Of a stretch of 64,000 nucleotides of DNA, positions 38,179 through 64,000 are shown piece by piece (position 1 is the stretch's first letter; every line of letters begins with the position of its first letter). The DNA lies in contig OX597831.1 in NCBI GenBank assembly GCA_951406725.2, positions 5,456,001 to 5,520,000 on the forward strand. The letters run 5' to 3'. Source of the stretch: Octopus vulgaris (taxonomy: Eukaryota). The position numbers and the translations under genes are program-made. Under the pieces are notes generated by a model that was not told the DNA's origin, made no database searches, and was given only the letters and a program-made list of their open reading frames with translations.

Positions 38179-38394
38179 ATATATACACATGCATGTGTGT
38201 TTGTTCTTTGATAAATCTATCTCTGCCCATCGGTTAATGATTCTAAACATATATATATACATATATATTTGTGTGTGTATATAAGTGTATATATTTATTA
38301 ACGTTGTCTTATTTTGTCACTTGGATGCCTAATAATCTGTCTATACACACATACAGACACACATGCATATATATCCATATATATATTTGTATAT

Positions 38395-38450
<56 letters not shown>

Positions 38451-38976
38451 ACTTTTCCGTAAGTCCTAACAACAACAACATAAATAAAATGCTATAAAAA
38501 TTTTAGAATTTTAAAAAATAACAGTTGTTGCTGACGGTGGTGGAGGTGGGGGGAAAGTTGGGGGGTGGAGTAGAAAAATCAACAATAACAACAAAAAAGG
38601 TCATAATAACCCCTAATCCACCCTAATACTTAATAATTTCCCACCCACCCCAAAATTAACAGTTAAACCCCACCCTCCCAATTTAAATTGTTAATCAAGG
38701 TGGGTTAGAACAATTTGTGAAATAATTATCAATTTTTCTTTTTTTTTTTTCTTTTTTTTCTTTCTGTTTTTTGTTTTAAAGTACAAATAAAAAAAAATTT
38801 AAATAAATAAAAAAAGGATAAAAGTTAATACCATTATCATTAGTATAATTACAATTATTGTCAATATTATTATTATTATTATTATTATTATTATCAAATG
38901 TCCATATGGCAATAGAAAGAAATTAACATTGTATAATCACTGTTGATGCAATTGTTGTTGCTGTCAATATTATAAT

Positions 38977-39008
<32 letters not shown>

Positions 39009-39027
39009 TTATAACCGTCAGTAGTTT

Positions 39028-39203
39028 TCATACTGATGTCTCTCGGAAAACTCGGACAGAGGTGCCGTTGTGTTGTACATGGATGTATTTCGTGGTGTCC
39101 ACTTGAGAGATCTTTACTTGAGTGCTAGGGACGATAATGTCAGTTGTAAGGAGACACTGCGCAAGGGCAGAGTCCAGCTTGTCACTCTCTGCTGGGGTTT
39201 TAC
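39028..39203 (-). CDS. INPP5A: Distal alternative terminal exon of INPP5A ending in PDZ-binding motif ETSV*
   Basis: Acceptor tgttttattttctacag|GTAAAA. In phase 1, matching the 58817 donor, it reads (G)KTPAESDKLDSALAQCLLTTDIIVPSTQVKISQVDTTKYIHVQHNGTSVRVFRETSV-TGA. It is a unique-looking island among simple repeats. The link to INPP5A is inferred from strand and phase. Confidence 0.68.
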
Positions 39204-39469
39204 CTGTAGAAAATAAAACAGAACAGGTAGAAGAAATTTAAAAACACACACAAACACACACATATATATATACATACACATTATGGTCATTCCATGCTTG
39301 CAATGGGTTGGACAGATTTTCTATGGCTGGATGCTCTTCCGTTCGGTGAGTCTTAACCGTTTCCACCTACCACAATATATTTCCCCCATGGCTGGATACG
39401 TTTGTGCAGGATATTAGAAATTAATGACATCCATTTAGAACAATTGTGTGATGTCAAAGTAAAGATACT

Positions 39470-39930
39470 TACTCACTCTCTCACTCACTCACTCACTCAC
39501 TCACTCACTCACTCACTCACTCACTCTCACTCACTCATTCACTATCACTCTCACACTCACTCATTCACTCTCACACTCACTCATTCACTCTCACACTCAC
39601 TCATTCACTCTCTCACTCACTCACTCACTCACTCTCACACTCACTCATTCACTCTCACTCACTCACTTTCACACACACACACTCTCACGCGCTTGCCCTC
39701 TCTCTCTCATGCCCTCTGTCTTACATGCACACTCACTCTCACGCACTCATCCTTAGCGCTTGCCCTCTCTCTCGTGCCCTCTGTCTCACATGCACACTTG
39801 CCCTTAGCGCTTACCCTCTTCCTCTCAAGCCCCCTTGCACCCTCTCTCTCTCGCCCTCTCACGCGCTCATCCTTAGCGCTTGCCCCCTCTCTCACTCACA
39901 CGCACACTCACTCACTCACTCTCACACATA
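39470..39930. repeat. (TCAC)n / CT-rich low-complexity repeat
   Basis: Direct reading. Explains ORF 39402..40049. Confidence 0.9.
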
Positions 39931-40545
39931 CATATACACATGAAGGTTTTCTTCCAGCTTCCCTCTGCGAAATCCACTCAGAAACCTCTGGTCTCAGCCT
40001 GGGTATAGAGCAGAAGAAACTTGCCCAAGGTGCCTCGCATTGGAACTGAACCTAAAATCACATAGCTGGGAACTAAACTTCCAAACCACACAGCCATGCC
40101 TTCACCTACACACACACACACACACACACACATGTATACATGTTTGCATATATATAAACTAGCACCCTGTTGACTATACCAATAAGTGTTCCAGTTGATC
40201 CGATTGATGGAACAGCCTGGTCATGAAATTAACATACAGGTGGCTGAGTACTCCACAGACCCACATACCCTTAGAGTAGTTCTCAAGGAGATTCGGCATG
40301 ACACAGAATGTCAAAAAGCTGGCCCTGTGAATTACAGGTATGATTCAATTTTGCCAGCTGAGTCAACTGGAATCACATAAATCAAGCGACTTGCTCAAGG
40401 CCACATGCATATGTGTGTATGCATGTATGTATGTACAGAGATTAATGGAGACTGCATGGGTATGGTCATGTGATGGAGAATAAGACAAAGAATTATTTAC
40501 ATTATTTACATTTGATGGATATTTGTCCTCATCTTGTTTGTTGTT

Positions 40546-40591
40546 AACACAACATTTTGACTGATATACCCTCCAGCCTTCTTCAGGTGTC
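40546..40591 (-). ncRNA. Decayed hammerhead motif in a Penelope-like fragment (~40495-40725)
   Basis: GACAC CTGAAGA A GGCTGG agggtata TCAGTC AAAA TGTT GTGTT: core and stems I and II recognisable, GAAAC mutated. Confidence 0.45.
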
Positions 40592-41158
40592 TTGGGGGAA
40601 ATTTCGAACCTGGGTTCTCATTCCTATGGTATTTTTCGATATTATTATTATTGTTATAGCTCAGGTCACTGCTTGCAATTGAACTCGGGATCTTGGGGTT
40701 AGTAGCCCACGCTCTTAACCATATGGGACTGAACCTAGAACCTAGAACCATGTGGAAGACAAAGAATTGTCAGTATACCCAAATAGAAAACCTTGGAAAA
40801 GCTGGACCTAAGCAGAAATGGTAAAAAACGATGCCAATCTGCTGAAACTAGCAAAAAAACAGATGACTAAAGAACTCAGTGAATAGCAGGCTGTTATGTT
40901 GGAAAGGACTCTCCCAACCCATGCAAGCATGAGAATGTAGATGTAAAATTGTCAATACATTGTTTAACATTCAATGGAAGGTATATGAAAATGTTTTCAG
41001 AGATAAACAAACGACTGTAACTTTAGATTTCAATTGTCAATGAAATAACGGACATTTATATACAACAGCTTTATAAATATATATTTTTAGATAATATATG
41101 CATATACAAATATACATAAACAAATATACATGTATACATACAGATATACAGACATTTA

Positions 41159-41214
<56 letters not shown>

Positions 41215-43984
41215 TATAAGTATACATGTGTATATATATATATATATACACACACATAGATATATACATACACACATATGTATACATACTCACACACATA
41301 TATACACATACAAACACATATACATACACATGCACACACACACACAAACGCATATACATACATACACATGTATACATATAGAAATGTTTACATATATATA
41401 TATGAAATGTTTACATATATATATATATATATATGTATGTACACACATGCACACAAATATATATATTTATATATATATATACTTACACACATACACAGCG
41501 GTATACATACATGTATGGTCATATACAAGAAGGTCAGAATTTACCTGATTTTCAACAAAATTGATTTCCAATTTACATGTTTTACAAGATTTTACTTTAA
41601 AAATTCCTGTCAATTCTAAACATTATTTTATTTATTTCTTTTTACCAAAACCTGACGAAATTTTCTGGATGTGTATCGGCATGCATTACGTGTATGGTTG
41701 TGTGTATGTATGCAAACACGCCTGCACACACATTAATACTTATATGTTCTTAGTATCAACAAGCAAGAAACATTAAAAAAAATGGACTCAATACATGGTG
41801 TAGTCAAATATTGCTATACTTTTAGAATGAGGGTCAATGACTGTGACTTCGAAGTCTTGTTAAAGCAGTTTATCAAATAGCGTTTCTAATACACGGAGGG
41901 ACTGGATGTATGGGTAAGAATGGGTCAGAAGTCAGTGAAAGAAGGTAAAAAAAAGGTGTGGGGCATTGTATTAAGATACAATGTCAGGGATTAATAAGAT
42001 GTTTCTAGTCGGACCACTGTTCTTTTCTACTCTAAGGCACAAGGCCCGAAATTTTGGGGGAGCGGGATCAGTCGATTAGATCGACCCCAGTATGCAACTG
42101 GTACTTAATTTATCAACCCTGAAAGGATGAAAGGCAAAGTCGACCTGGGCAGAATTTGAACTCAGAACGTAAAGACAGACGAACTACCTTTAAGCATTTT
42201 GCCCGGCATGCTAACGTAATGTTCATAATGGAAGAAGGCCTGAAGGGGAAAAAGTTTTTGTTCCTTTATTTGAAGTAGGGGGCTGCCTTAGAATATATAT
42301 TCTATTTATATGTAGAAGTGGCTGTATGGTAAGTAGCTTGCTTACTAACCACATGGTTCTAGGTTCAGTCTCACTGCATGGCACCTTAGGCAAGTGTCTT
42401 CTACTATAGCCTCAGGCCAACCAAAGCCTTGTGAGTGGATTTGGTAGACGGAAACTGAAAGAAGCCCATCGTACATAGGTAGATATTAAACGGCGGTGTA
42501 TCTGCATGGCCGCAGCTCTGAGCTGAAACTACAATATATATATATATATATATATTTTCTATTGCTCCGTTGATAGAATTATATAGTTAAAGAGCAACCC
42601 AAAACATGGTAGCACTGTTTTATGTTGAAATTGCCGTCTTTTTCAAGCTTACCAGAAACACAGCCATGCATATAGCCTTTCTGTGGTGTGCAGAATGGTT
42701 TTCTTCCAGGAATTTTTCTGAGATATGTATGTGTGTATATATGTGTGTATACGTGTGTGTGTGTATATGTTCATACATCTGTCTGTATGCATGTCTGCAT
42801 GTAAATATGCATATATATATGTATGTATTTTTGTATGTGTGTGTATAATCATATATAAGTGTATGTGTGTATATCTATACATCTGTATGCATGCATGTAA
42901 ATATGTGTATGCATGCATGCACAGATATATATATATACACACACACACATTCACATAGACAGACATATCGTTTCAGTCATTGGACTGTGGCCATGCTAGA
43001 GCACAACTTTCAAGGGTTCAGTTCAAACAAATCAAAACTGATACTTATTTTCTAAAGCCTGAATATATTCCATTAGTCTCTTCTGCCAAGTCACTAAGTT
43101 ACAGGGCTGTAAACAAACAAACAAACACTGGTTTTCAAGTTTTGATGGGGACAAACTCAACACACACACACACACACCATTGGACTTCTTTCAATTCCCA
43201 TCTACCAAATCCATCCACAAGGCATCAGTCAGACTGGAGCTATAGTAGAAGATCCTTGCCCAAGGTGCAACACTGTGAGACTGGTTTCCCAACCACATCG
43301 CCACGTCTGCACCTATAAGGACCACATGCCCCCTAAATATAAAGATCATATGCAGTTACTCTCCTTTTTGCACTGTTACAATCTACCTGTGGACCTAACT
43401 TTTGAAACCTTTACATATTTGACATTTTATTTGAAGTGGGGTTTTTTTATATGCATTTCCAGTACTTGAGAGAAAGAGAGAGAGAGAGAGAGAGAAAACA
43501 TGGGGTCCCAGATGGCAGAGAGAGGTATGGCCTTTTGTACATATGAGCTACCAGTGACTGTCAGAATAAATGGACCAAATGCTCATCCCTTCAGCAATGT
43601 GTAGTACCAAACAGCCACCTGGCCTAAAGTTACAGTTGAAATTATGGGAAGCAGTGTGATTGATGAGCAGAATTGATGAAAGACATCCACTGATCAGTTG
43701 TAATGCACTTATGATGCTGGACAGAGGAACCCCAGTGTGATCAATGACTAGGACCAGCAAGTACGTTACTGCTAGTGTCTACAAATCTAAGGACCAATGG
43801 ATGCTATTAGCCAACAGAAAATTTGAATGATTTTTATTAAAACCAGATCATCCTGTATCTGGTTATCCATGGACATTTCGTTATCCATGGACAACCAAAT
43901 CTGGTTATCCATGGACAATCAGATTTGAATGATTCCTATTAAAACCAGATCATCCTATAATATCTGCCCATGGACAACCAGGTG

Positions 43985-44540
43985 ACACAAAAAAGGTGCT
44001 GTTACCCCATTTTTGGGGGGTGGGGGGACTCAAAAGGGCCTATACTGGAAGACTACCTGCAAAAGGGGTTTATGATCAACAGTGCAAGATATAGTGCTTT
44101 GCTTGGCAACAAACTGAAGCCAGAAATTCGCACCAAACACCAAAGCCTATTGTCAAAGAAACTTTTGTTGTTGCATGATAATGCATGCCCACACATAGCT
44201 GCCCAGACCACTGAAACCATTAACCAAATGGGTTTTGAGGTGCTGGAACACCCTTCCTACAGCCCAGATCTCGCCCCTTCTGACTATCATATCTTTGGAC
44301 TGCTCAAAGACGGTTTATGAGGTCATCGATTTCCTACTGATGAAGATGTGAAGGAAATGGTGCATAAATGGTTGCATGACCAATGGCAAACCTTCTTCTT
44401 GGAGGGAATACACCAACCTGTGGACCACTGGACCAAATGATTCAAAAAGGAAGGAGACTATACAGAAAAATGATATACTTGTTTATCCAATGCTTTTGTG
44501 GAAATACATTGAAAAAAAACAAAAACAAGAGTGCATATAA
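43985..44540 (+). pseudogene. Mariner transposase remnant (catalytic region)
   Basis: LLLHDNACPH...LEHPSYSPDLAPSDYHIFGLLK motifs, in-frame stops, N-terminus missing. Confidence 0.9.
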
Positions 44541-44653
44541 TTTCTAACTCTCTCTAGTATATATATACATGAAAAACGAGAGAATATAACACCTTTCTTC
44601 TGTCCCTTTAATTTTCTTTGTTGTTTCTACTCAATCTAAGTTGGATTTATTAA

Positions 44654-45114
44654 CCTTTTTGTTACTGAGATGCTCTGTGTTTCTTTCAATTAATTTTAAA
44701 TATAACAAAGAATTTAGTAAAATAACTTAGTTACCATTCAGCTAGTTTTGGGAACATAAATGGATGACTAAGGTTTGGTGGAAGATTTTAATTCAAAACT
44801 TATGAAAACAAGAAATTTGTACTCAGAGCCTGAGGCGGTTTCAGCTGGGTTGTTATCTAAAGGGTTAAGAATTGTCTCTTTGTTATATATTTTAACCCTT
44901 TTACCATATTTCTGTTGAGATGTTCTGTGTTTCTTTCAATTAATTTTAAATATAACAAAGAATTTAGTAAAATAACTTAGTTATCATTCAGCTAGTGTTA
45001 GGAACATAAAATGTGACTAAGGCTTGGTGGAAGATTTTAATTGAAAACTTATGAAAACAAGACATTTGTAACACAGAGCCAGAGCTGGTTTCAGCCGGGT
45101 TGGTAATGAAAGGG
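44654..45114. mobile_element. Two adjacent piggyBac-like MITEs (44654-44864, 44896-45114)
   Basis: TTAA-CC(C)TTT ... AAAGGG-TTAA ends with near-identical interiors. Confidence 0.75.
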
Positions 45115-45416
45115 TTAATATAAATATCTCTATAGTTATACTTAAAAATTCATCATCTGAAAGGCCTCCACTTTTCGCTTTCTCTCGTTTTGCATATATA
45201 CATATTTTGTATTTCATACCCAAACTTATTTTGAATACAGTTAATTTGTTTATCTGCATAATTGCTTCTATATCTGCTCAGCTTCATCCCTCTTATAGCT
45301 ATTCTTTATCCTGTGGAATTAATCTCCTGTAACGACATTGGTGTTTAAGCCTAAACCATTTGAGTACTACTGTCTTCTATATAGAGAATCTCCGGATCTC
45401 GTCTGTTACTGTATAC

Positions 45417-45616
45417 TCTTTTACATGTTTCAGTCATTTGACTGTGGCCATGCTGGAGCACCGCCTTTAGTCGAGCAAATCGACCCCCAGGACTTATTCT
45501 TTGTAAGCCTAGTACTTATTCTATCGGTCACTTTTGCCAAACTGCTAAGTTACAGGGAAGGAAACACACCAGCATTGGTTGTCAAGCATTGTTGGAGGCA
45601 CAAACGCACACACACG

Positions 45617-45663
<47 letters not shown>

Positions 45664-45850
45664 AAGCCCATCATATATATATATGCGACGGGCTTCTTTC
45701 AGTTTCCATCTACCAAATCCATTCACAAGGCTTTGGTCGGCCCGAGGCTATAGTAGAAGACACTTGCCCAAGGTGCCATGTAGTGGAATTGAACCCAGAA
45801 CCATGTGGTTCATAAGCAAACTACTTACCACACAGCCACTCCTACACCTA
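45417..45850 (-). mobile_element. SINE family B, full length
   Basis: Reverse complement of the family B consensus. Confidence 0.85.
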
Positions 45851-47039
45851 TATATATATATATAGGTTTGACTATAAATACACATACACATATATGATGG
45901 ACTTCTTTCAGTTTCTGTCCACCAAATCCATTCACAACATTTTGGTTGGATGCAGATTACAGTAAAAGACATTTGCCCAACGTGCCACACAATGGAACTG
46001 AACCTCAAATTCCACCTCCTGTCCTACAATTAATGGTTTACACTTATTAATGAAATAATTTGCCAAAAATACATCAGATTGGTGAAACTAGGATTTAAGA
46101 TATTGCAGCTAGAATTTGAAACCCAAACTCTCAAACACACGCAACAAATTTGTCTGCTCTCATCAATAAGCTGCAGGAAGACTACATCTCAGTCAGGACT
46201 AATATCGAATGCCAAGTCCCGTGGGACTCTAGGACTAATTACTGAAGAGTGTAATTAACTGAAGAGTGCCGCTTATTTCAAGTTAACCAAACATTCCAGG
46301 ACAAACTATTCACCAAGATATTTCTTCAACTTATAAAACTGAACAAAGAAGGCAAAATGGATTTGATGATGTGTGCAGCTAATTATTTTCATTTTAGCTT
46401 CCAAATTGAGTGATTTCTTCAATTCCTTGATTGAGTCATTGATAATATTTTCTCTGGTATGACATCTTTGGAAGAGAGTAGACCAGGAGATATGAAGAGG
46501 TATATTTGGGAGATGAGATTGGAAGCATAACTGAGAAGGCCCAATACTGCCATTGCTGGGACCTACAAACCTCTCGTGTGTATGTCTGTGCATATGTTTG
46601 TATTTAGTTCACAGATGAGATCTGAATGTTCTCAGTATAGAATACAGTTAGAAGTGCTCATTGTTTGTGTATGTGTGAGTATGTGTGTAAATTTTACAGA
46701 CACATGAAATTACATATGTTCTGTGAATGGGTTTAAATAAATGGAATAGAAGCATTATAAGACATTTTAATGTTACCTTGGATTAGATTATTGTTATTAT
46801 CGGCTTCCATACTTACAAGAACCTTTAATTTCACTGCCATCTCCACCACTAACACCACCACCACCACCACTTCGAATAACCCCAAACCTTAATTCGGAAA
46901 CTGAAGTGCCATCTGTATCTCAAGCAGTCATTGAAATCAAATTGATCATAATCTAATAAGATTACCTAGCCCTGTCACAACAACAACAACAACAATAGTG
47001 GTGGTGGTGGCGGTAGTAGTAGTAGTAGTGGTGGTGGCG

Positions 47040-47075
<36 letters not shown>

Positions 47076-48156
47076 ATGGTGGTGGTGGTGGTGGTATAGT
47101 TGTGGCAGTAGCAACTTTATGAAGTCTACAGAGACTTCATGCAAGACCAATTGTCTGCTACAAGACAGAGATTATAAATGGCATAATAACACAAGTGTGT
47201 GATGCTATTCCACTCACACAGCCTCTCCTAATGTCTGTGTCCACCACCACCATGACCGAAATTATCACTGCACTTTCTGACCAAAAGCGCACACCACCAG
47301 ACTGCCAACAATGGTCATTAGGAAAAAGAAAAACAAAAATTCTTTAACCTTTAAGCATTCAAATTATTCCATCAAATGCAGAACTTATTTATTCACATCG
47401 TTTTGAATTTATTCTGCATTATCTTGTGGCCGTGAGATTTTAATTAAGTGACTGTATATTTTTTTTTTTTAGACTAACATTGTAAGGTAGGTGTGAGAGG
47501 CTGGATCTGGCCATTTTGAACACAAAACAGGTAGAATATTTTGGTCAGATATGGGGATGGGAGGGGGGGGGGTTAAATTTTAAAGGGCCAAAAGTAATTT
47601 TAATCTTGCTGACAATATGTCACTTCAAAGAAGGGAACTGGTGCTTGGGCCATAAAGGCCATAAAGCCTAGGGCTTGTTTGTTAACAATAAAATTGTAAA
47701 TAAACGCACCTGTGTGGTGAAGAAGTTTGCCTCCCAACCATAGGATTTCAGTTTCAGTCCCACTACATGGCACACTAGGTGTCTTCTATAACCCAGGGTT
47801 GACCAAAGCCTTATAAGGGGATTTTGTAGATGAAGCTGAAACAAAAAGCCTGCCTGCCTGCCTGCTTCACCCACCTACCTGTGTGTCTTTGTGTTTGTCA
47901 CCCCCACCACTGCAGGATAATCAGAATTGATTTATGTCCACATAACCTAGCAGTCCAATAAGAAGAGACCAATAAAATAATTACCAGGCTTTAAAAAGAC
48001 AAAGAAATACCGGAGTTAATTAGTTTGATTAAATCCTTTGAGAGTGTTGCTCCAGCATGGCTGCAGTCCAACAAGTGAAACAAGTAAAAGCTAAAAATAT
48101 GCAAACAAACAGAGCCTGAAAAATTACTTTAAGATACAGGGTATATTTTATAAATA

Positions 48157-48570
48157 GGCGCAGGAGTGGCTGTGTGGTAAGTAGCTTGCTAACCAACCAC
48201 ATGGTTCCGGGTTCAGTCCCACTGCATGGCACCTTGGGCAAGTGTCTTCTGCTATAGCCTCGGGCCGACCAAAGCCTTGTGAGTGGATTTGGTAGACGGA
48301 AACTGAAAGAAGCCCGTCGTATATATGTATATATATGTATATATGTGTGTGTGCGTGTATGTTTGTGTTTGTCCCCCTAGCATTGCTTGACAACCGATGC
48401 TGGTGTGTTTATGTCCCCGTCCCCCGTCACTTAGCGGTTCGGCAAAAGAGACCGATAGAATAAGTACTGGGCTTACAAAGAATAAGTCCCGGGGTCGAAT
48501 TGCTCGATTAAAGGCGGTGCTCCAGCATGGCCGCAGTCAAATGACTGAAACAAGTAAAAGTGTAAAGAGT
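48157..48570 (+). mobile_element. SINE family B, full length, little diverged
   Basis: Matches 13563-14006. Confidence 0.9.
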
Positions 48571-49129
48571 ATGCCTGCTTAAGTATCATACAAGCATGAA
48601 ACTATTAGTAGATCTTTCAGTTGTGTATTTAATTCATTATAATGAAAAGCTTACTTTCAAAACCAGATCTATGCATCAGAATGACTTGAGTAATTGTTTA
48701 AAACAACTTGAATACATCTGATTTTGATTGGAAGACTAAGATTTGCCAACTGTCTTACGTGGCATCTGTCCCAGTTTGACTGGGAAAAATATTTCATGTG
48801 CGTGAAGCCAGCAGCTTGCAGCAGATTGTGTTTTAATGGTTATCATGAAACTGACCAAATATGCACTTACACCAATTTTGAAAGTAAGCTCCTCGTGTGT
48901 GTGTGTACATAGAGACATAACAGGTGGGCTAGAAGCTTACTTTCCAACCATGTGGTCTCATTTCAGCCCCACTACATCTTGAGCACCTTGAGCAAGTGTC
49001 TTCTATAGCTCCCGGCCAATAAAGCCTTGTAAGCAGATTTGGTAGGAAAGAAGCATGTTATATACACTGTACATATATGTATGTACATGTATGTATATGT
49101 TAGTCTTATACATGTGTGTGTGTATACAT

Positions 49130-49536
49130 GTGGCCAATGCCAGTGCCTGCTGACTGGCTCCCATGCTGGTGACACATAAAAAGCGCTATTCGAACATGAT
49201 CGATGCCAGGGCTGCCTGACTGGCTCCTCATGCTGGTGGCACATAAACAGCTCCATCTGAACGTGTCCAGTACCAATGCCCCCTGACTGGCTTCTGTGCC
49301 GGTGGCACATAAAAAACACTATCCAAATGTGATTGATGTCAGGCTCGTCTAACTGGCTCCTGAGCCTTTGGCACATAAAAAGCACCCACTACACTCCCAA
49401 AGTGGTTGGTGTTAGGAATGGTATCCAGCTGTAGAAACCTTGCCAGATCAGATTGGAGCCTGGTGCAGCCGTTGGCTCTCCGGACCTCAGTCAAGCTGTC
49501 CAACTCATGCCAGCATAGAAAACAGACATTAAACAA

Positions 49537-49540
<4 letters not shown>
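49130..49540 (+). mobile_element. Retroposon tail with about four internal ~70-bp tandem units
   Basis: Repeated actggctcc...ggtggcacataaaaagca units. Tail shared with 24995-25135 (minus) and 27190-27345. Confidence 0.6.
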
Positions 49541-49584
<44 letters not shown>

Positions 49585-49952
49585 TGTTTCAGTCATTATA
49601 CTGCGCCCATGCTGGGGCACTGCCCTGAAGAACTTTGAGTCAAATGAATTGACTTGTGTGTGTTTGTGCTTAGAAGCGGACACCTACCTTTAGACATGAG
49701 ATGATTAATTAAAGTTCAGCAAACAGAAAGGCAACAAAACACACATCTTTTACACACTGCTCCTCTTGCTTCATACAGGAATTATATTTTCATCTTGTTG
49801 ATGCTACCTAGTTACAGCTGGGAAAGGAATGGGTGAAGCAGGATTAAGGTGTCATTAGCAGAGACACAAAGCTGTGCTTGTACTGACATACAAAAAGTCC
49901 AGTCCAGACCAGCCTTTATTTCTTTAGGGTCAGCCAGCTCTCACTCTGGAGT

Positions 49953-49983
<31 letters not shown>

Positions 49984-51337
49984 TACATTAAAATGCTATT
50001 CAACAATGGTTTAAAAGATGCAGAGAAAAGATGGGAGTTTGAGGGAAGGTTATAAACAAAATAGATTCAACTCAGCAGAAAGGATGGGTAAGATGGGACA
50101 AAAGGTGAATCGCTTATTTTCTTCTAATTAAAGAGAAATACAATTAGCTCTAACACCATGATGGAGAGTTAGGAATTTGTCTTTTTTTTTCACAAGGTCA
50201 ATACCTAGGGGGTCTACTCTTTCTGTCGTTGGGTGCACATCTTACCTCTAATTGCTTACAACGACAGGCTCGTCTTTTAGAGCTACATAAAACAAAACAA
50301 TACTCTTTTAAGTATTACAAAATGACAGGGTGGGGACAACAAATATAACAGCAACAATTTCCCTAACATCCATCACACCTTTTCAATATCACACACACAC
50401 ACACACACACACACATGCACACACATGACAGCTTTCATATTAACTCTTATTTTCATTTCGTTTTTGGATTTGGTTTGCAAGATTCTTTATATGAGTTTGT
50501 GTGTTGGCGCGAAAAGAAAATGACTCTCCCCAGACACAACAGAATCTTATATTTTCATATTAACCTTATATTATCAATACCTATGGACAAATCATTTGTT
50601 GTTCCTTTTAAGTTAATTGGAGGGTAACAAGTGTATTTCATATAGAAAATAAAATTCTGTGTGTGTGTGTGTGATTCAAATATCAATAATTCTGCAACAG
50701 CCTCCAAGAATTGACCTTTTTGATACCAACCTACCTGGAACTGTCCCTGGTTCTAGGACATATAGGCTTCCTGTTTTAAATTGTCTAAATTCAAACCAGC
50801 TATTCTAAACGTAAGTTATGTTACTAAATTCTTTATTATTTTCAAAATGTATGGAAACAAAGACAGTGCATTTGAACAGAAATTAGGTAACGAAAAAGGG
50901 TAAAGTTGCTAGCAGTAAAGTTGAGACAGTGTCATGTGACAATTTGCTGGGGCTGCCTGCTGGAGCCTAGAGGCAGGTATTTACAGGGAAAAACTTTGAC
51001 AAGACAGTCAGTCGCCCGCTGACACTCGTTGACACTACATCGAAGAGGCCAGGGAACAGAAGAAAGAAGAAGGAGACATGCACCCAACACCAGAGCTGAA
51101 GACACCCCCGAAAGGGGGGGGGCACCACGTCAAAACAGTAGAGGAGTAGAGGCTGAAACCGGAAGACGTGGTTCCTCCTGATGATGTCTTGAGCTAACTG
51201 GATCCTATAAAGGAGCTGTTGTGGTAGCAGACCATAAACACAATTGAAATTCCTTCCTTGTTGTTCAAAGACAAAGAATCTTTAGATCTTGTCCAAGACT
51301 TCAACTTCTCATAGGAACACACTATTTGAAGTATTAA

Positions 51338-51538
51338 CCCTTTCATTTCAATGTTTCTGTTGAAGTGCAGTCTTTGTTTCAATAAATTTCGAAAATGGTC
51401 AATTTAGTAAAATAACTCAATCGTTATTAAGATGGTGCTTGGGAACACAAATTAAGGGGAAACTTTGATGGACGGGTCAATTCACATTATGTAGGAGCAA
51501 GAAGTTTTTAACTATCAGGCAGATAGGCATCAAAAGGG
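51338..51538. mobile_element. piggyBac-like MITE (same family as 44896-45114)
   Basis: ttaa-ccctttc ... aaaaggg-ttaa. Confidence 0.7.
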
Positions 51539-51865
51539 TTAAGAATGCTTAACAATCTGTATGTAATAGTGAAAGGACCAGGGTGTAAATGGAATAAGGT
51601 CCAAACACTACAAAAAAAAAACAATTTTGGAAGATGGAGGTAAGCTATAAAGATGTAACACAATGTATTGCCAGACAATGTGACTATTCCGAAGGATGTT
51701 AAATCTTTGGTAAATGTTATTTATTATTCAGCATAACTAGTCTGGTGAACTTTTTGATACAGCCTGTATAGACCCAACTCTGCATGTAGACCCCAGGGTG
51801 GTTGCTTTTTGAAACATTTGTTTGGAAAAACAAAACCCACATCTTATATACCATCAAATACAGAA

Positions 51866-51904
<39 letters not shown>

Positions 51905-52010
51905 AATTTAAAAATAGGATAAAATCTTTTTATGAATTTATCAAGTAGCTAGCATGAAAAACCTCATAAGAGAAAAATCCACCAATTTTTTTCTCTTAAA
52001 TATATTTATT

Positions 52011-52480
52011 TATATTATATAGAGGATATTACTATACATAAATGCCACACACTAGGAGGGACTCTTAAAGTCAAAACTACCAAACTATATATTTTGGTAT
52101 TTTTGACTTTAAGAGTCCCTCTTAGCGTGTGGCATTTATGTATAGTAATGCCCTCTATATAATATATATATATATGGGGAAAGTAAGAAGGAAAAATGCA
52201 CATTGAATATCAAAAAAAGAAAGGCTTTTTTATGAAAAGTAGCGATAAATACAATTAGATGAACTGAGGTAGAATTAAGAGGAATAAAAGTCATTATTTT
52301 GAATTGTTAAAGAGATTCAAAGTCAAACTGGTATCATCAAAATAATGAATTTAATTCCTCTTAATTCTACCTCAGTTCATCTAATTGTATTTATTTATCA
52401 CTACTTTTCGTAAAAAAGCCATTATTTTTTTTTATTTCCAATGTGCATTTTCGCTTTTTTTCTTCTTACTTTCCCCATAT
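52011..52480. repeat. Two adjacent long inverted repeats (52011-52166 and 52173-52480)
   Basis: agggactcttaaagtcaaaa / ttttgactttaagagtccct and atacaattagatgaactgaggtagaattaagaggaat / attcctcttaattctacctcagttcatctaattgtat. Confidence 0.88.
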
Positions 52481-52527
52481 CTTTTCCACGTGTAGTTTCT
52501 ATTTTTTTTTTTTAAACATATTTCTAT

Positions 52528-52583
<56 letters not shown>

Positions 52584-53968
52584 CAGGAGTGGCTGTGTGG
52601 TAAATCTTTCGCCTTTTACTAAAGTAGCTTGCTTATCAACCACATGGTTCCAGGTTCAGTCCTACTGCATGGCACTTTGGGCAAGTGTCTCCTACTATAG
52701 CCTCAGGTCAACCAAAGCCTTGTGGGAGAATTTAGTAGATGGAAACTAAAAGAAGCCTGTCGTGTGTGTGTATATATATATATATATATAATGGGTGTAT
52801 GTGTTTGTCCGTCATCATCGCTTGACAACCAATGTTGGTGTGTTTACGTCCCCGTATTCTCCTTTTTGGATAATTTGAGATGTAGGGTATACCTTTATAA
52901 TAAATATAAAATTGAGCCTGGCAAGAAATGAAGTGGTTAAACTGTAGATTTGACCATCTCTGGGGTCAGGGCCATTTTAGCAGCATTATAGGCTTTTCAG
53001 CAAACCAATGCACTGGGACCCAAGTAAGTCACAGTATACATAGATCAGAGTTGGGTCCCTAAACCAGTGAGACTCTCAAGGTAGCTGTGCTCATACTTAA
53101 GACAGCACTGCTTGGGAAAAAAAATGGAAACAAATGGACAAGTTTCTAATCTTGTTAGAACTTTGCCTGGAAAAGAATATCTTGTATCCAGAGAGACCGT
53201 TTTGGGCTTCTAGTGATATTTATAGCATATATAAACTTGTACAGAATGAAACTGGTTTGTCTGATTTGCATAACATAATGCATTCAGCATTACAGGGACA
53301 CTGGAGATGAAGACAACTGGTAATATCTATGAACACTAAGACCTAGATACCATATAAAACTGGGTAAATGACAGTACCAAAATATGCTACAATGTCCCAA
53401 AGTCCGACTCGTACTTGACTTACATTTGGCACATCTGGGGATAGCTGTGTCAGGTTTATGTGTCTCTAAACATATTCATGTTGTGTCATGTTTTTCAGGA
53501 TCAATAAAATATAGTACCAGTAAAATACTGGGATCAATGCAATAATGGCCTCCACCCACCCCCTCAGAATTTCTGGCTTTGTCTTTAAATCAGAAATAAT
53601 TAATAGTTCAAATGATGAATAGGTCAACTCAAGACTTAACTATAAATGTGTGTGTGTGTGTGTATAATCATTTAATATACACAGGATTTAAATGAAAGCT
53701 ACCATAAGTTTCATGCTTTTGATAATAGGATATTCAGTGGAGCTTGTATGGCATTGCATGTATTATCAGGGAATCGTTCAGTCTGGTTCTATTTTGAGTC
53801 TGAATGATTGCTCAATAATACACATCATGCTATACAAGATTGTCCAGCTATTGTATTATCAGAGGCATGAAACTTATTGTAGCTCACATTTAAGATCTGT
53901 GCATATTAAATGATATTAATTTTTCACTAGATGGAGTACTTGTTTATATATATATGTATACATATATA

Positions 53969-54002
<34 letters not shown>

Positions 54003-54004
<2 letters not shown>

Positions 54005-54337
54005 GGCACATGACTCAGTGGTTAGAGTGTCGAGCTTATGATCGTGAGGTTGTGAGTTCGGATCCCGGACCAGGCTGCGTGTTGTGTTCTTGAGCAAGAC
54101 TCTTTATTTCACGTTGCCCCAGTTCACTCAGCTGTAGAAATGAGTTGCGACGTCACTGGTGCCAAGCTGTATCGGCCCCTTTGCCTTTCTCTTGGATAAC
54201 ACTGGTGGCATGGAGAGGGGAGACCAGAATGCATGGGCGACTTCTGGTCTTCCATAAACTATCTTGACCGGACTTGTGCCTGGGAGGGTAACTTTCTAAG
54301 TGCAATCCCATGGTCATTCATGACCGAAGGGGTCTCA
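54003..54337 (+). mobile_element. SINE family C, full length
   Basis: tRNA-like head ggcacatgactcagtggttagagt...gagttcggatccc, then ttgagcaagac...ttcactcagctg. Confidence 0.8.
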
Positions 54338-54924
54338 GCATGTATATATATATATATATAAGAGACAATTATGCAGTTAAACAAATTAGATACACTAAAT
54401 ATGCATGTTTGGGTATGAAATACAAAATATGCATGTATGTATTCATGCAAAATGAGAGAAAGCAAAGGGTGGAGACATTCCTACAATATCTAATATTTTT
54501 AATTTATCTGTATAATTGCCCCTATACCCACTCAACTTGATGTTTCCTACAGCCCTTCTTTACCTTGTGGAGTCAATCCCCTGTACAGACATCAGAATCT
54601 AAGTCTGAATCTTGTGAGCTCTACTATGTGTCTTCTGCACTGAAAATCTCTGAATCTCATCTGTGGACTAATAAACATACATATAAAAAATTATAAATTT
54701 TCTAGCTTATATGCTGAGAAATAGATGCAAAATCATCTCGCCACACAATTTAGCATCTATTTCTCAGCATATAGGCTAGAAAATTTTTCTAAGCCCTTAT
54801 TATAAATAAAAATATAATTTTCACTTTAATTGGTTTCATTTTATATGCTGGCCGCTGATAAATTTTTTTTAAAAACAAGTTTTATCCTCTCTCATCATAT
54901 ATATATATATATATATATATAAGT

Positions 54925-55292
54925 AGGCATAGGAGTGGCTGTGTGGTAAGTAGCTTGCTTACCAACCACATGGTTCCAGGTTCAGTTCCAGTGCATGGCA
55001 CCTTGGGCAAGTGTCTTCTACTATAGCCTCGGGCCAAGGCATTGTGAGTGGATTTGGTAGACGGAAACTGAAAGAAGCCCGTTGTATATATGTGTGTGTG
55101 TGTGTGTGTGTCCAACATCACTTGACAACTGATGCTGGTATGTTTGCGTCCCCGTAACTTAGCAGTTCGGCAAAAGAGACCAATAGAATGAGTACTAGGC
55201 TTACAAAGAATAAGTTCTGGGGTTGATTTGCTCGACTAAAGCTGGTGCTCTAGCATGGCCACAGTCAAATGACTGAAGCAAGTAAAAGAGAG
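54925..55292 (+). mobile_element. SINE family B, full length
   Basis: Consensus match. Confidence 0.85.
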
Positions 55293-56018
55293 AGTAAAGA
55301 GTTCTGGTGTGTTTTTAAAATTCTTGAAATGACTTTTCCACGAAGGGAGTTGTGAGAAGATTTTGCTTAACTCTAAGTTTGGAATTTAAGCAAAATGGTT
55401 GACTCCTAGAAATATATCTGCTAGTGACCCCCCACCTGCCCCTTTAAGAAAGACGCATTGATTTTATTTATTTATTTATTTTTTTTTTTGATATAAGCAC
55501 TTTGTGACACAAACGATATCTTGAAAATCCTGCAAGAAATGGGTAAATTGTGAAGCAAACCTCAAATTTTGTTATCAAGTCAAACACGATTGTCTTTTTC
55601 CTTTTCACTTAAACACACAACATCATCATCATAATTATTCGGTGTGCATGTTCCATGTTGGCATGGGTCAGATGGTGTGACAGGATCCGATGAGCTCTGA
55701 TGTCAGCTTTTGCACACCTTCTACAGCTTGATATCCTTCCTAACATCAAACACTTTACAGCATGGACTCAGTGCTTTTTTTTGTTTTTTGTTTTGTGCCA
55801 CCAACATTATTGAGGTGGCACAAAAAACGAAATCACCCAATACACGCTGTAATGTGGTTGACATTAGGAAGGGCTCACACACTCACAAACACACACATAT
55901 ATATATACACACGATACACAAGAACAAGAGAGAAAGAGAGTGCAGCTAAGAAACCCTGAGTCTTTGATAAAAGTGTTGAAGCTCTCAGAATGGCTGGCAT
56001 TCTGAGAACTTCAAGAAA

Positions 56019-56191
56019 TTACAAGTGTGCATGGGTGGTGGTGACATTGATGGAAAAACACAAACGAAACAATGGTTGGCACTGAAGTTCTTGACATAAG
56101 TGTGTAAGGAATGTACTAGTGCATTTGTTTACTTTGGGTGTGAGAGAGGTGAAGGGTCTATATGATGATAGTGAAGGGTTGGGCTTAGATG
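56019..56191 (-). CDS. Possible third terminal exon (phase 1) ending THAHL*
   Basis: Strong pyrimidine tract cttcctccttccttgcag|CATCT. The phase-1 frame, which fits the 58817 donor, stays open longest (57 codons). No homology recognised. Confidence 0.25.
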
Positions 56192-56367
56192 CTGCAAGGA
56201 AGGAGGAAGATGATGATGATGTGAAAACAACATAAAGGCAGCAAATTATAAAACTAAACAATAAGCAACATTATCATCTCTTTTTAAACTTAAAACCATT
56301 AAAACAGGTGTCATATTCTGTGAGGGCAATAAGTGAGGGTCGAAAATAACACTGTGCAACATAATTT

Positions 56368-56797
56368 TTGTCCTTGGGTAGCATCTGTCATTTCCTATTT
56401 GTTTACCCCTAGAAAATATGGAAAATGGTTAATATTTCCTTCAAAGTTTGCTTTTGGTAAATATATTCAAACCCCAAAGAAAATCTTTCGAAACCTGGCT
56501 ATGATGCTTCCCCACATTTGCTCATGATCAGAGGTGCACATATTGTCAGCCACCAAGGGACATGCTCAGCTAGTTATGCTCAAGCAAATCTGTGGTACTG
56601 AATAGAATATTTAATATAATGATATTTCTGCTTCAGCAACTCTGTGCTGTATCTGTCCGTAATGTAATGGAAAATAGGTCAGTTTCAAAACATTGATGTC
56701 CAGGTCACAAAAGCGAAGTTTGAAGGGAATAGTAAACATTCTCTATGATTTCTAGATAGAAGCAAATAGGACATAACACTTTCTGACCAAAGACAAA
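56368..56797. mobile_element. Old MITE-like element with ~90-bp degenerate inverted ends
   Basis: ttccttcaaagtttgctttt is inverted to aaaagcgaagtttgaagggaa, and tttgtccttgg to ccaaagacaaa. Confidence 0.5.
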
Positions 56798-57252
56798 TAT
56801 ATATATATATATAAATTTATAAATAAAGATAATATCAATCTTATCAAGTGGCCAGCATGGGAATAAATACCATACAAAGGTAATAATTATTTAAAACTAT
56901 AAATTACACCTCACAATAATCCTTCCACCTCACAACTCCCACTGACTATATTTTTTCCCCTTATATACCTCGTACCATCATTTATTGTATTAAGAAGGTG
57001 AAGAAAGATAATATAGTTCTGAAGGGTCCTCTCTAACTTGGTCCCTATAACATGGACTAAAATCCTTTTTTTTTTTGCTTCCATTTTCTCTTTCTGCCTT
57101 GTCTGTCTTAGAAACTACATAGAGATCCTTTGCATCTGCTTGAATCCGCATAAAATGGATGATAAACTTTTGTAGAAGAAATAAATACCAAAACTTTGTT
57201 CTCTTTTATAATTCATACCTGGAATTTATCTTCTGTAACAGCTAAATTCAAC

Positions 57253-57640
57253 AGTGGCTGCGTGGTAAGTAGCTTCCTTACGAACCACATGGTTCCGGAT
57301 TCAGTCCCACTGCGTGGCACCTTGGGCAAGTGTCTTCTACTATAGCCTCGGGCCAACCAAAGCCTTGTGAGTGGATTTGGTAGACGGAAACTAAAAGAAG
57401 CCCATTGTATATATGGATGTGTGTGTATATGTTTATGTGTCTGTGTTTGTCCCCCCTCAACATCGCTCAACAACCGATGCTGGTGTGTTTACATCCCCGT
57501 AACTCAGCAGTTCGGCAAAAGAGACCGATAGAATAAGTACTAGGCTTACAAAGAATAAGTCCTGGGGTCGATTTGCTCGATTAAAGGTGGTGCTCCAGAA
57601 TGGCCACAGTCAAATGACTGAAACAAGTAAGAGTAAAAGA
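57253..57640 (+). mobile_element. SINE family B, antisense within the putative 3' UTR of the CaaX isoform
   Basis: Consensus match about 420 nt downstream of the stop at 58056. Confidence 0.85.
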
Positions 57641-58055
57641 GGGAGGCTGGTTTTCTCAGGTGACAAAATTTTAGGTTGATAAAGATTAAATTCTGATTGG
57701 ACATAACTAAATATACAGGAACTACCCCTGTTTTGGCACAGAGCTTTGGAAGAACTTTGTGAAAGGAATGCATTTCACCAATTCACACACACACACACAG
57801 GTGTCTAGGTTTGACAATGGTACCAGACTAAGGTAGGACAATAAAGATGACATTCACAAAACTTAAATACATGAACAAAAAACAAAATAATAATAATAAT
57901 AATAATAATAATAAACGGTAGAAAAAATATTTGAAGCAAATAAAAAATAAATAAGGTGAAAATATAAGAAATAAACAAAAAGAGGCAAATGAAACTCACG
58001 TTACAATTGTCTGAAGGGGGGAGGTGCATTGGAGAAGGTGGGAGACGAGAGGATG

Positions 58056-58853
58056 TCATACAACTGTGCAAGATGGACATAGCCAGGACGTGCGTTTCGC
58101 TAATGATGAAGATCTGGATACACCTATGGATCTCGGAGACTGTGCTAATGTCCCTTTTCCGCTAACACTGTCAGGACATGGCTGGACAACATTACATGCA
58201 CATTGGACATCTGTGGTGTGAGGTGTGGAATGTGCTTCATGCATCGTCATACTACTGAGGCTACCATCTCTGCCACTGCCACCAGAATCTGCAGGAGTAC
58301 CTAGGCTGGGAGCATGAACGGTCGGATGCTGTGACAGAATTAGAGAATTGCTATCGAGGTTTGATGTGTTGATACTTGGATTGTAATACTCCGACGACAA
58401 CAAGGTCAGTGTCGAAGCTTGATCGAGGTTGTCGAGGTTACTCTTTCCAAGGTGCTCAGGAAGGTCATCGAGGCTGGTGTCAATGAAGTCTTCTGATGAA
58501 GAGCTATGGTGTTTCATGTGACGCTGCCAGTTCATCAGAACACTCTCAGCCATTAACACCTGTCTAGCCGTGTCATGGAAGGAGATACGAGACTCTTCAG
58601 CACCGTTCAGAGAAGATTTTGATAGATGGTTCTCGGCATAATTCCTAGACCGAACGCTATTCCGAAAGTTAGAGAGCAGCCTCTGCTCATATTCAAACAC
58701 AGCATAATCGTGAATATTCAACTTTGCAATTTCTACGTCGCTCATGTCCTCGCCATTTACAGACAAGGTGTTCCTTCGCAAATGTCTGGTGGAAGTGGGA
58801 ATTTGAGGTGAGTTACCTGGGCCGTTCTTCACATGAAATAGAAGGTAGACTGG
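58056..58853 (-). CDS. INPP5A: Long read-through terminal exon of INPP5A, 265 codons, ending in CaaX motif CTVV*
   Basis: About 800 nt of stop-free, non-repetitive sequence that is more GC-rich than its flanks and continues the catalytic-domain frame. It ends ...KRTSWLCPSCTVV-TGA. Type I 5-phosphatases are known to end in a farnesylation CaaX box. Confidence 0.78.
   Translation of the reverse strand, partial: PVYLLFHVKNGPGNSPQIPTSTRHLRRNTLSVNGEDMSDVEIAKLNIHDYAVFEYEQRLLSNFRNSVRSRNYAENHLSKSSLNGAEESRISFHDTARQVLMAESVLMNWQRHMKHHSSSSEDFIDTSLDDLPEHLGKSNLDNLDQASTLTLLSSEYYNPSINTSNLDSNSLILSQHPTVHAPSLGTPADSGGSGRDGSLSSMTMHEAHSTPHTTDVQCACNVVQPCPDSVSGKGTLAQSPRSIGVSRSSSLAKRTSWLCPSCTVV
58817..58853 (-). CDS. 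INPP5A: Short form of the next INPP5A exon (37 nt, PVYLLFHVKNGP + G, phase 0/1)
   Basis: Acceptor ctttttgtttttttttttccaatgcag|CCAGTC and donor CCAG|GTAACT. In frame with the upstream DHK exon. Confidence 0.8.
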
Positions 58854-59099
58854 CTGCATTGGAAAAAAAAAAACAAAAAGAAAACAGTCATGAATATAAT
58901 TACAAGATTAAAAAAAGAACAATGTCAGATTAATGTCAAATATGCATAGCAATTAATACAATATGCAAATATTACACATTAACATATTTTAATCAACACT
59001 TAATATACAAGCATCATATTTCAATCAACATATCAAAGAATATATTAAAATAAAGGAATAATATTCACAGATCCAACATGAATGTGACTTTATCCATCC

Positions 59100-59420
59100 A
59101 TCTTCAATTCCTAAGATGGTCATGGAAGTAGAGTCCTCAGGTGCCTCCTTCACAGGATCCTAGCTGATGCTATCTGATTTTTGGCTGGATTCCCAAGTTG
59201 TGACCAGCTTAGACGATTGACATCATCCAAACATCTCATTCATGTTCTAACCTTTGGTCTCCTGCCAGTTGGCTTGGCTTGAAGAATCCGTCTTGTGATT
59301 CTTCCCTGCGACATTCTAATCATGTCTACAGTACAGGAGCAGTGGTCTTTCAATGCGGAGAAGCAGCAGCTTGTCTTGAACAGACTCCTTAACCTCTGAG
59401 CCGTACAAGTAATGTTGTGA
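59100..59420 (-). mobile_element. RTE-type LINE fragment
   Basis: Nucleotide similarity to 22880-23040 (gcttgaagaatccgtcttg, caatgcggagaagcagcagct). Confidence 0.7.
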
Positions 59421-60818
59421 CTTTATACAATGAATAATCCCATGGGAGCTAAAGAGAGAGCCTCAGTCTGGTCCTTTGACCTGCTAGAAATAACATCTAA
59501 CTATCCCTTAAATGACATTCTTCTGCCTTAAACAGGAAAGGACACTTTGCATTGGATGATGTGGCCCTATGTATAATATATCTGAGTAAAAGATGGACTG
59601 GTCATGGGAGGGCTTCATTTGATCATCCCTCTGGATCAGAGCTGACCTGGGCTTAACTGTTTCAGAGGGGATCCACAGACATCTGTAAATATTTGCATCA
59701 GGTTAACTATCAGCTCAAAATATCAAACACTGGGCATAGCTTAATCTGTGCACAATTGTATGTGTACATATAGGACATATAGGTATAATATATGTATATA
59801 TAAATCATTTTCAGTGGCTGAACTCAAAGTAAATAAAACTATAAATATCATGTAAATATTGGGTTAAATATTGGATTGGAAAAGTCAAAGGCAGCATATA
59901 TGATGGTTCTTATAATGAGCATACATACATACATATATATGTGTGTATGTGTGTATATATATATATAATGAGATGGATTTTATATTCAATGATGTCATTA
60001 TTTACCCTAAGTGCAGATTATCTTGGACTAATGCTAGTTGCATCTGATCACATTTTGCAATCCAACAGCAAAAGACAACAATAAAATTCCTGATGAACAA
60101 GAGACCATGACCATGTCTAAAATGCCGCCAACATTTCCAATTATGTTACACATGTCTGCAGAAAATATTACAGGTGTGATCAGCTGTTTCTCTTAGACAT
60201 GGTGCTATTTTTCCCCATGGTACTGCCACTTGGTACCACTTCCCTCTGCTACCACTTCCTTTGTGGTACCACTTTCCTAAGCAGTATGACTTGTTGGTAC
60301 TAACACAATATGCAATACCTGTGATAAGAGAAATATTAACTATTTCTGATGTTAATAATTTCCATCTACATGCCGCAACTTACACTGTTTCATATTGTCT
60401 TTCTCAACTTTCATCTTTTCAGAAATTAACAGATAAAAAAATAAACCTCAACATCAGTTGGTTTATCTGACATTATGCAAGTCTCAGCAAACATATTTAA
60501 AAGCATAAAAATTTTAAAAAAAACATCTAAATACCAATACTGAAGTGGAAAATCAAATGAAATTCATGTAAAATTATGTACAAATCATTAATTAAAATGG
60601 GTATGAGCTAATGAAAATGGTTTGTTAGGAATTGAGAACAAAAATGTCTTGTTGTGGAGGTTGACTGCACAGAAGTCAACATGTTGCTGAATTCTGATGA
60701 AAAACAGAACATTTTTGGTCAAATACTTCAAGACCTACGACTTCTGGAGCCACCAGAAAATAGTAATGTGTACTTTACTTAAGTACCGTGAATATATGAT
60801 TACAAAAATAATTAACTA

Positions 60819-61166
60819 CAGGGTGATTCAAAAGTCGCCATACATAGGAACAATTCATTTTTTTATAAGAAGCAGTTTATAAGAACAGTTTTTTTTTTAG
60901 TTTATCTAACAGGCTCTATATGGTTACCATTGTTTTGAATACACATTGCACTACGTTTACACCACTCATCGTGAACTCGTAATAAGCAAATGAGTTGGTG
61001 ATGCGTTCCTTCAAATGATTTATGTCTTTTATCTTTCTGCGATACACCATGCCTGTCAAATGCCCCCAAAGATAGAAATCAAGAGGGGTCAGATTAGGGG
61101 ATCTAGGAACTGCTTCTTATAAAAAAATAAATTTTTCTTATGTATGTAGACTTTTGAATCATCCTG
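60819..61166 (-). mobile_element. Tc1/mariner-superfamily deletion derivative
   Basis: TIRs cagggtgattcaaaagtc / gacttttgaatcatcctg with TA flanks. Remnant PRSPNLTPLDFYLWGHLTGMVYRRK. Confidence 0.85.
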
Positions 61167-63570: not shown

Positions 63571-63763
63571 TGATGGCAGGGAACTGACAGACGGGATCAT
63601 TTGAGCATCGGAATAAGAGCTTTGCAGTACTTCTTGAGTTCAGGTCTTGCCAAGGTCCCATTCTGGGGATGGCCTGCAAAGGCCATGAATTCTACTCCTC
63701 CACCCATTTCTTCTATCATATGAAAAGATAAAAAAAGCTTAAATGTGAAGATGTGACACCTAC

Positions 63764-63826
63764 CTTGTGGTCACCCATGCAGGTATTATGGCCTATGACA
63801 TCATATTCAAGTCGATGTTCGTCATT
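63764..63826 (-). CDS. INPP5A: Internal coding exon of a type I inositol-1,4,5-trisphosphate 5-phosphatase (63 nt, phase 0/0)
   Basis: The minus strand reads ctttctttatctctgctag|AATGAC...CACAAG|gtaggt and translates NDEHRLEYDVIGHNTCMGDHK. Joined to the next exon it gives CMGDHKPVYLLF, matching the 5-phosphatase DHKPV motif in its type I form (human INPP5A YDHIGPNVCMGDHKPVFLAF, from memory). Confidence 0.92.
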
Positions 63827-64000
63827 CTAGCAGAGATAAAGAAAGACCTTAAATGAAGTTGGGGACACAAGAGGGACTTTTGCTTTATTTATGTATTTAT
63901 TTGTAATGGAAGGAAGGGGCAGGAATGATGACCATTGCAGGCCCAACAAGACTGGTGCTCAGGTGAAGAGTTTGATGTGGTTCATGTTTATCCTGAAATT

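Follow-up and report, generated by a model that had tools for sequence, protein, structure and literature searches.

Octopus INPP5A probably has a choice of two 5' splice sites leading to a single last exon, which would exchange a lipid anchor for a PDZ-docking motif

The window analysed here is a stretch of 64,000 nucleotides (nt) from Octopus vulgaris (GenBank assembly GCA_951406725.2, contig OX597831.1, forward-strand positions 5,456,001 to 5,520,000); coordinates are those of the window. It holds the 3' end of a gene whose sequence identifies it as octopus INPP5A, the type I 5-phosphatase that degrades inositol 1,4,5-trisphosphate (IP3), and its alternative C-terminal tails are our subject. 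The exons in the window match INPP5A-like records of Octopus sinensis at 100%. The encoded protein matches the family PF22669 and keeps the GDFNFR and P-x-WCDR motifs in our alignment A1; the enzyme is expected to hydrolyse Ins(1,4,5)P3. The exon that follows the one ending in DHK begins at 58853 with PVYL, so an intron splits the catalytic DHKPV motif, and all of the tail features lie on the minus strand (Table 1).

What C-termini can be made from this exon? An earlier annotation based on the letters alone, here called the sequence-only reading, had placed a phase-1 donor beside DHKPV at 58817/58816, with read-through to a tail of about 250 residues ending CTVV and an in-phase join to a distant exon ending RETSV. 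Both products are borne out. The read-through frame comprises 265 aa, 253 of them past the junction, and ends CPSCTVV at a stop codon at 58058-58056; splicing 58817 onto the acceptor at 39203 keeps the reading frame, and the resulting 58-aa tail, also present in Octopus gene models, ends RVFRETSV before a stop at 39030-39028. Two parts of the locus had been overlooked: a second donor, AAC/GTGAGT at 58000/57999, whose use makes the whole exon 854 nt long, and a small third exon at 50282-50246, whose stop codon sits 2 nt ahead of its own donor. The small exon would, by its sequence, give an INPP5A form with neither a lipid nor a PDZ address.

Table 1. Features of the INPP5A tail end, with the evidence for each (UTR, untranslated region; a slash marks the exon-intron boundary)
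Feature	Position	Strand	Evidence
INPP5A catalytic-domain exon, 63 nt, ends DHK, donor AAG/GTAGGT	63764..63826	-	100% to O. sinensis records
37-nt segment common to all three annotated tail forms	58817..58853	-	also 37 nt in L001, L002
Proximal phase-1 5' splice site CAG/GTAACT (58817/58816), 37 nt into exon; use gives RETSV or third form	58811..58816	-	G/GT signature in 80/82 Cxxx tails
Read-through coding tail, 253 aa plus stop	58056..58816	-	100% to XP_029646005.1; single contig piece 57998-58853 in 4/4 runs
CPSCTVV-stop: CaaX-type end with upstream Cys; prenylation and palmitoylation predicted	58056..58079	-	upstream Cys in 53/53 long Cxxx tails
56 nt of 3' UTR, then distal 5' splice site AAC/GTGAGT (58000/57999)	57994..58055	-	similar donors 45 / 37 nt past stop in L001 / L002
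Last exon: with proximal donor, codes 58-aa tail ending RETSV; with distal donor, likely 3' UTR	39028..39203	-	in-phase join and records
Third exon, 37 nt, early stop, neither motif, then GAG/GTAAGA donor	50246..50282	-	O. sinensis X4 and O. bimaculoides X3 models
Candidate 3' UTR, AATAAA at 39004 (within AAT repeat) and 38299	38294..39027	-	signal positions; end is a candidate

Scored with a generic donor matrix, the proximal donor is the highest-scoring GT of its exon (5.14), and 58000 is the second-best donor of the region. The weaker donors at 58301 (-0.79) and 58124 (0.37), from which hybrids of the long tail and RETSV had been envisaged, are in phase as supposed, but such hybrids are not supported in octopus: 0 of the 10 members of the Octopus cluster has one, and the contigs described below cross both sites unbroken. 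CTVV has the pattern of a CaaX end: Cys fourth from the C-terminus, an aliphatic a2 residue and a permissive X. A class I PDZ ligand has the form [ST]-x-[VIL] at a free C-terminus; RETSV followed by the stop has this form and is conserved, and we regard this tail as a putative PDZ ligand. As a control for chance, 39203 is alone among 33 strict phase-1 acceptors below 58000 in yielding a class I ending. Under looser acceptor rules such endings arise from 4 of the 129 acceptors on the minus strand and from 3 of the 96 on the plus strand, and an E-[ST]-x-V/L ending arises from just one of the 225, which is again 39203. None of the 33 strict acceptors leads to a short CaaX last exon downstream.

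The CaaX and RETSV forms are both present as Octopus RefSeq models. The long tail of the window is identical to that of O. sinensis XP_029646005.1, the CaaX form, and the RETSV form is modelled in O. sinensis (XP_029646006.1), Octopus bimaculoides (XP_014782470.1, in which one residue differs) and O. vulgaris (CAI9735736.1); three Octopus species have the 58817-to-39203 join in models from RefSeq or GenBank. The form that uses the third exon is modelled in two Octopus species. Outside the window, the O. sinensis X1, X3 and X4 models have N-termini 12 aa longer than that of X2 (P0034/P0035). In X3 (P0034) the extra residues are inserted after GSIFED, where none of the 12 other full-length rows of alignment A1 has them; from its sequence, the insert likely reflects an extra micro-exon or an alternative splice site.

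Contigs from octopus sequencing runs bear on the distal donor. The long tail is present in 20 of 24 listed runs, from 8 studies; no listed run is recorded as RNA, and their RNA status is a guess. The contigs of four runs (four studies) were aligned to 50150-64000, a stretch that excludes the last exon. In all four, a single contig piece spans exactly 57998-58853, with other letters beyond both ends (68, 1504, 1709 and 1083 upstream; 148, 28, 218 and 15 downstream). Because these contigs stop exactly at the acceptor 58853 and continue with other letters, we read them as spliced RNA, which places the CaaX form in spliced contigs of four of four runs. Every one of them departs from the genome at the consensus donor 58000/57999, 56 nt past the CaaX stop. 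The contig edge at 57998, two bases beyond the donor, fits a join from 58000 to an exon beginning GT; this is true of 39203, untrue of 50282 and true of 5 of 62 candidate acceptors. If the join is to 39203, the 218-letter end reaches the AAT repeat at 38984, an expected assembly break. We infer that 39203 is the acceptor of the distal donor as well. The contig branch tables, which are dominated by repeats and show 15 of their 398 joints and 24 of their 2,603 loose ends, are uninformative on the 63764-to-58853 and 58817-to-39203 joins and on the third exon. For the probable alternative 5' splice-site event, use of the distal donor is seen in the contig ends, and the proximal join in database records and relatives. 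The sequence-only reading had left the choice of tail to splicing or polyadenylation. Two C-termini do issue from one junction, but the polyadenylation half of that suggestion fares poorly, since no contig runs on into the intron to a poly(A) site (all four leave at 57998) and the contig evidence favours alternative 5' splice sites that join one and the same last exon.

Comparison of sequences indicates that both tails are conserved and branch at one shared junction. Among the best 120 of 402 relatives, listed regardless of tail, every tail of 56-100 aa (33/33) ends [RK]ET-x-V, and 33 of the 40 tails longer than 150 aa end Cxxx, with 4 RET hybrids and 3 other endings making up the remainder. 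The 184 distinct stored tails divide into 82 Cxxx, 64 RET-x-V/L and 38 other endings. In the Cxxx tails the junction residue is Gly in 80/82 and the residue after it has a possible codon starting with A in 80/82, which we take as the trace of a G/GTA donor that has been read through; in the short RET tails the junction residue has a G-starting codon in 55/56, the trace of the same phase-1 join. Both tails are carried by 20 species from Mollusca, Nemertea, Priapulida, Arthropoda and Chordata, hand-picked and so not a rate, with entries that are mostly predicted models, and the two forms part 12-14 residues past DHK in 20/20. Both forms are modelled in molluscs, arthropods, amphioxus, sharks and a frog. 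Multi-exon proteins derived from Logan contain both forms in oyster clusters and in a cephalopod-like cluster other than octopus (P0316 and P0321 versus P0318 and P0319), and the same type of join as 58817-to-39203 is found in P0003, P0318 and P0319 (cephalopod-like) and in P0044, P0048 and P0055 (oyster and mussel clusters). RefSeq models of Mercenaria, Lineus and Bombus, along with some GenBank genome annotations, do include hybrids of a long tail with RET. The sequence-only reading had named a lack of conservation of either terminal motif, together with a lack of read-through transcripts, among the results that would refute it; both motifs are conserved, at one junction. The feature is not specific to cephalopods: the two tails are found across bilaterians, in five phyla. 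The first half of the long tail (58460-58760, minus strand) contains INGE, IHD[YF]AxFE and RHHSSSSED-like blocks that are kept in molluscs, a nemertean and L002, and it has no Pfam match.

The octopus layout also recurs in other animals' genomic DNA. A metagenome scan reduced 157 pattern matches to nine loci (L001-L009), two of which are genomic contigs, one bivalve-like (L001) and one from another invertebrate (L002). In both, a phase-1 donor lies at nt 37 and a long Cxxx tail ends CPYCVVL or CCSCVVL; a GTRAGT donor follows 45 or 37 nt past the stop, ahead of a RETSV exon. By chance, about 0.03-0.05 such hexamers are expected in 60 nt. L003, a spliced transcript of the RETSV form, shows the same join. 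L004 starts Val-Leu-stop, with a KETSV exon about 35 nt on and no acceptor between; it looks like a CaaX mRNA that carries the KETSV exon as UTR, a weak case with 9 coding bases only. L005 and L006 contain part of the last exon only, and P0058 and L007-L009 were set aside as likely chance matches. A strong donor at L001:1671 is in phase and lies 112 nt inside the long exon, at a position that matches the intermediate isoform X2 of Mercenaria; octopus has GC at the corresponding place. In mammals, nonsense-mediated decay follows a 50-55 nt rule. The short spacing from stop to donor would, speculatively, fit avoidance of such decay, and the octopus spacing of 56 nt is borderline.

Octopus INPP5A shares its catalytic domain, PF22669, with the human enzyme (P0250) and is 51% and 48% identical to the shark and frog proteins, respectively. 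Its Cys-Cys/CaaX-type end starts at the same junction residue as that of vertebrate INPP5A. PMC12450637 describes human C409 as farnesylated and C408 as palmitoylated, which targets the enzyme, and the C409S mutant as leaving membranes for the nucleoplasm. The short farnesylated tail that the sequence-only reading attributed to vertebrates is correct; it is 14 aa long, in contrast to 253 aa in octopus. By analogy, we predict prenylation and palmitoylation of the CPSCTVV end. Sharks, rays and Pelobates have an intact RET tail; the tail is truncated in four salmonid records and, among 19 mammal records of this form, with no human one among them, intact in 2 (Microcebus and Ictidomys) and altered or run-on in 17. 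The vertebrate RET-x-V/L form exists only as database models, and no description in print was found in the literature searched.

In Drosophila, the orthologous gene 5PtaseI likewise has a regulated choice of 3' end. PMC8055025 and PMC11551757 report a strong shift to the distal last exon on expression of Elav, Fne or Rbp9; in the PMC8055025 supplements the log alternative last exon ratio is +4.3 to +4.6 with Elav, Fne or Rbp9 and -5.4 in the elav/fne central nervous system, and Fne expression brings exclusion of a 37-nt exon (chr3R:25042645-25042681). From its length, that exon may correspond to the 37-nt segment in octopus. In what we saw of these papers, 5PtaseI figures as table rows with no discussion of tail or protein address, and the mechanism is poly(A) bypass, unlike that proposed here. 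Insects have an extra ending, short and used in place of the 37-nt segment, with neither a CaaX nor a PDZ motif (P0180, P0197, P0203-P0205, P0211, P0213 and P0214). It occurs in bees, an ant, a wasp and a beetle and may represent the neural form that depends on ELAV. We found no counterpart in octopus: a search of the window, L001 and L002 for such a last exon gave no convincing match. The 3' end of the gene is thus neuron-regulated in the fly, and an equation of the PDZ form with the neural form is not supported by these sources.

We propose, with a probability of about 0.7, that INPP5A chooses between two 5' splice sites feeding one last exon and in doing so likely swaps a lipid anchor for a PDZ-docking motif. 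With the distal donor, the 854-nt exon would be kept, the protein would end CPSCTVV and be anchored in membranes by prenyl and palmitoyl groups, and the last exon would serve as 3' UTR. Use of the proximal donor instead would lead to translation of the last exon, loss of the lipid site and exposure of an E-T-x-V class I end, which would recruit the enzyme to PDZ scaffolds near sites of phospholipase C and IP3 signalling. It is the use of the proximal donor in O. vulgaris, the lipidation, the PDZ binding and the effect on Ca2+ that we infer. Several observations weigh against this proposal. All four contigs cross 58817 unbroken, and no read or contig with the 58817-to-39203 join was seen in O. 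vulgaris, in a stretch without the last exon. The supporting records are mostly predicted models, and the motif is broken in the 17 mammal and 4 salmonid records noted above. The neural form of insects may carry neither tail, as the ELAV-family shift accompanies exclusion of the 37-nt exon in the fly tables. Finally, conservation of the RET tail goes beyond its last four residues to a YIH...FRET block that could serve another partner, and CTVV itself fits the class I pattern, so the contrast between the cephalopod tails may be less clean.

Two rival explanations concern the function of the tails. It is conceivable, though we think it unlikely, that the splice switch is real and the RET-x-V tail is kept for a role other than PDZ binding, either because a partner reads a YIH...FRET hairpin or because the enzyme is simply made soluble. 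Conservation in protostomes extends about 20 residues upstream of the RET end, and an AlphaFold model (44 sequences) has two strands at 445-458, at low confidence. However, vertebrates and amphioxus keep only the final RET-x-V/L without the YIH block, and the 64 distinct RET tails, which were classed by this motif, have E at -3, T at -2 and a terminal V or L, with variation at -1 alone. The same model leaves the tail unpacked from a domain of mean predicted local distance difference test (pLDDT) 80, with pLDDT below 50 over 408-451 and 459-463, low values that are weak evidence of disorder. Pfam recognised no domain in the long tail, its sole match in the short tail was below threshold, the ESM Atlas gave no usable match, and a PDB search returned only other 5-phosphatases. 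We give very little credence to the idea that the cephalopod CTVV is poorly prenylated and is itself a PDZ ligand, so that the switch there alters tail length and not anchor type. CTVV and CTLV do have T at -2 and a terminal V, yet the Cys and a second upstream Cys are present in 53/53 long Cxxx tails, and relatives mostly end in L (35/53). A terminal L marks a prenylation-type CaaX end.

Two further explanations concern the transcripts. That the CaaX form arises by intronic polyadenylation past its stop seems most improbable. The stretch of 150 nt past 57999 is 62% T, and last-exon use in Drosophila 5PtaseI is ELAV-regulated through poly(A)-site bypass in the tables cited (PMC8055025, PMC11551757); against this, the exit of all four contigs at a consensus donor, the distance of the first AATAAA (about 1,070 nt further, at 56986) and the donor kept at the same place in L001 and L002 all favour splicing. 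Hardly credible, finally, is that the octopus RETSV form stems from faulty annotation or from negligible noise in splicing: none of the four aligned runs has a RETSV branch, but rare variants get dropped from contigs, the proximal donor outscores every other GT of its exon, and the RETSV exon is intact and 87% identical to the spliced form of another cephalopod-like animal.

More tentatively, we suggest that the bilaterian ancestor already switched this IP3-degrading enzyme between a lipid anchor and a PDZ ligand by one donor choice, so that cell types set where IP3 signals end. The PDZ form would persist in sharks, in frogs and in some mammals (mouse lemur and ground squirrel) after repeated losses elsewhere, and this could be the reason that studies in mammals present INPP5A solely as farnesylated. 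The local confinement of IP3 signals is a long-standing question, and INPP5A has been described as placed by its lipid tail only; a conserved PDZ-ended form, if it exists as proposed, would put the IP3 off-switch on signalling scaffolds, and the last exon of vertebrate INPP5A may hide a partly decayed coding tail. The weight of the finding lies in the depth of conservation, the partial decay in mammals and the ready tests, since the proposed switch can be examined directly in Xenopus, Drosophila, Aplysia and cephalopods.

Splice-switched C-terminal addresses are already known as a kind, and the INPP5A isoforms themselves are in public annotation. In PMCA a/b, in the PDZ-binding variant of synaptojanin-2 and in the tail variants of KRAS and Cdc42, targeting changes with the choice of last coding segment. 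INPP5A would differ from all four in that one enzyme trades a prenyl anchor for a PDZ ligand, in five phyla, and in that a single last exon serves as coding sequence or as UTR. A PDZ-ligand isoform of INPP5A was not found described among the matches listed from the literature searched, which covers subscription papers and older INPP5A biochemistry thinly, and a prior mention is possible. No link between INPP5A and PDZ proteins appears in the accessible portions of PMC4133831, PMC10834251, PMC7555182, PMC3057978, PMC10177021, PMC4924639 and PMC7612895.

The remaining observations concern the surrounding DNA. No tRNA or Rfam match was found. A short-unit tandem repeat of about 1 kb at 30189-31212 has long open frames on both strands and no credible Pfam match. 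The last intron contains a mariner-like transposase fragment at 43961-44320 (plus strand), with weak DDE matches, and a 250-bp tandem duplication at 44666-45118.

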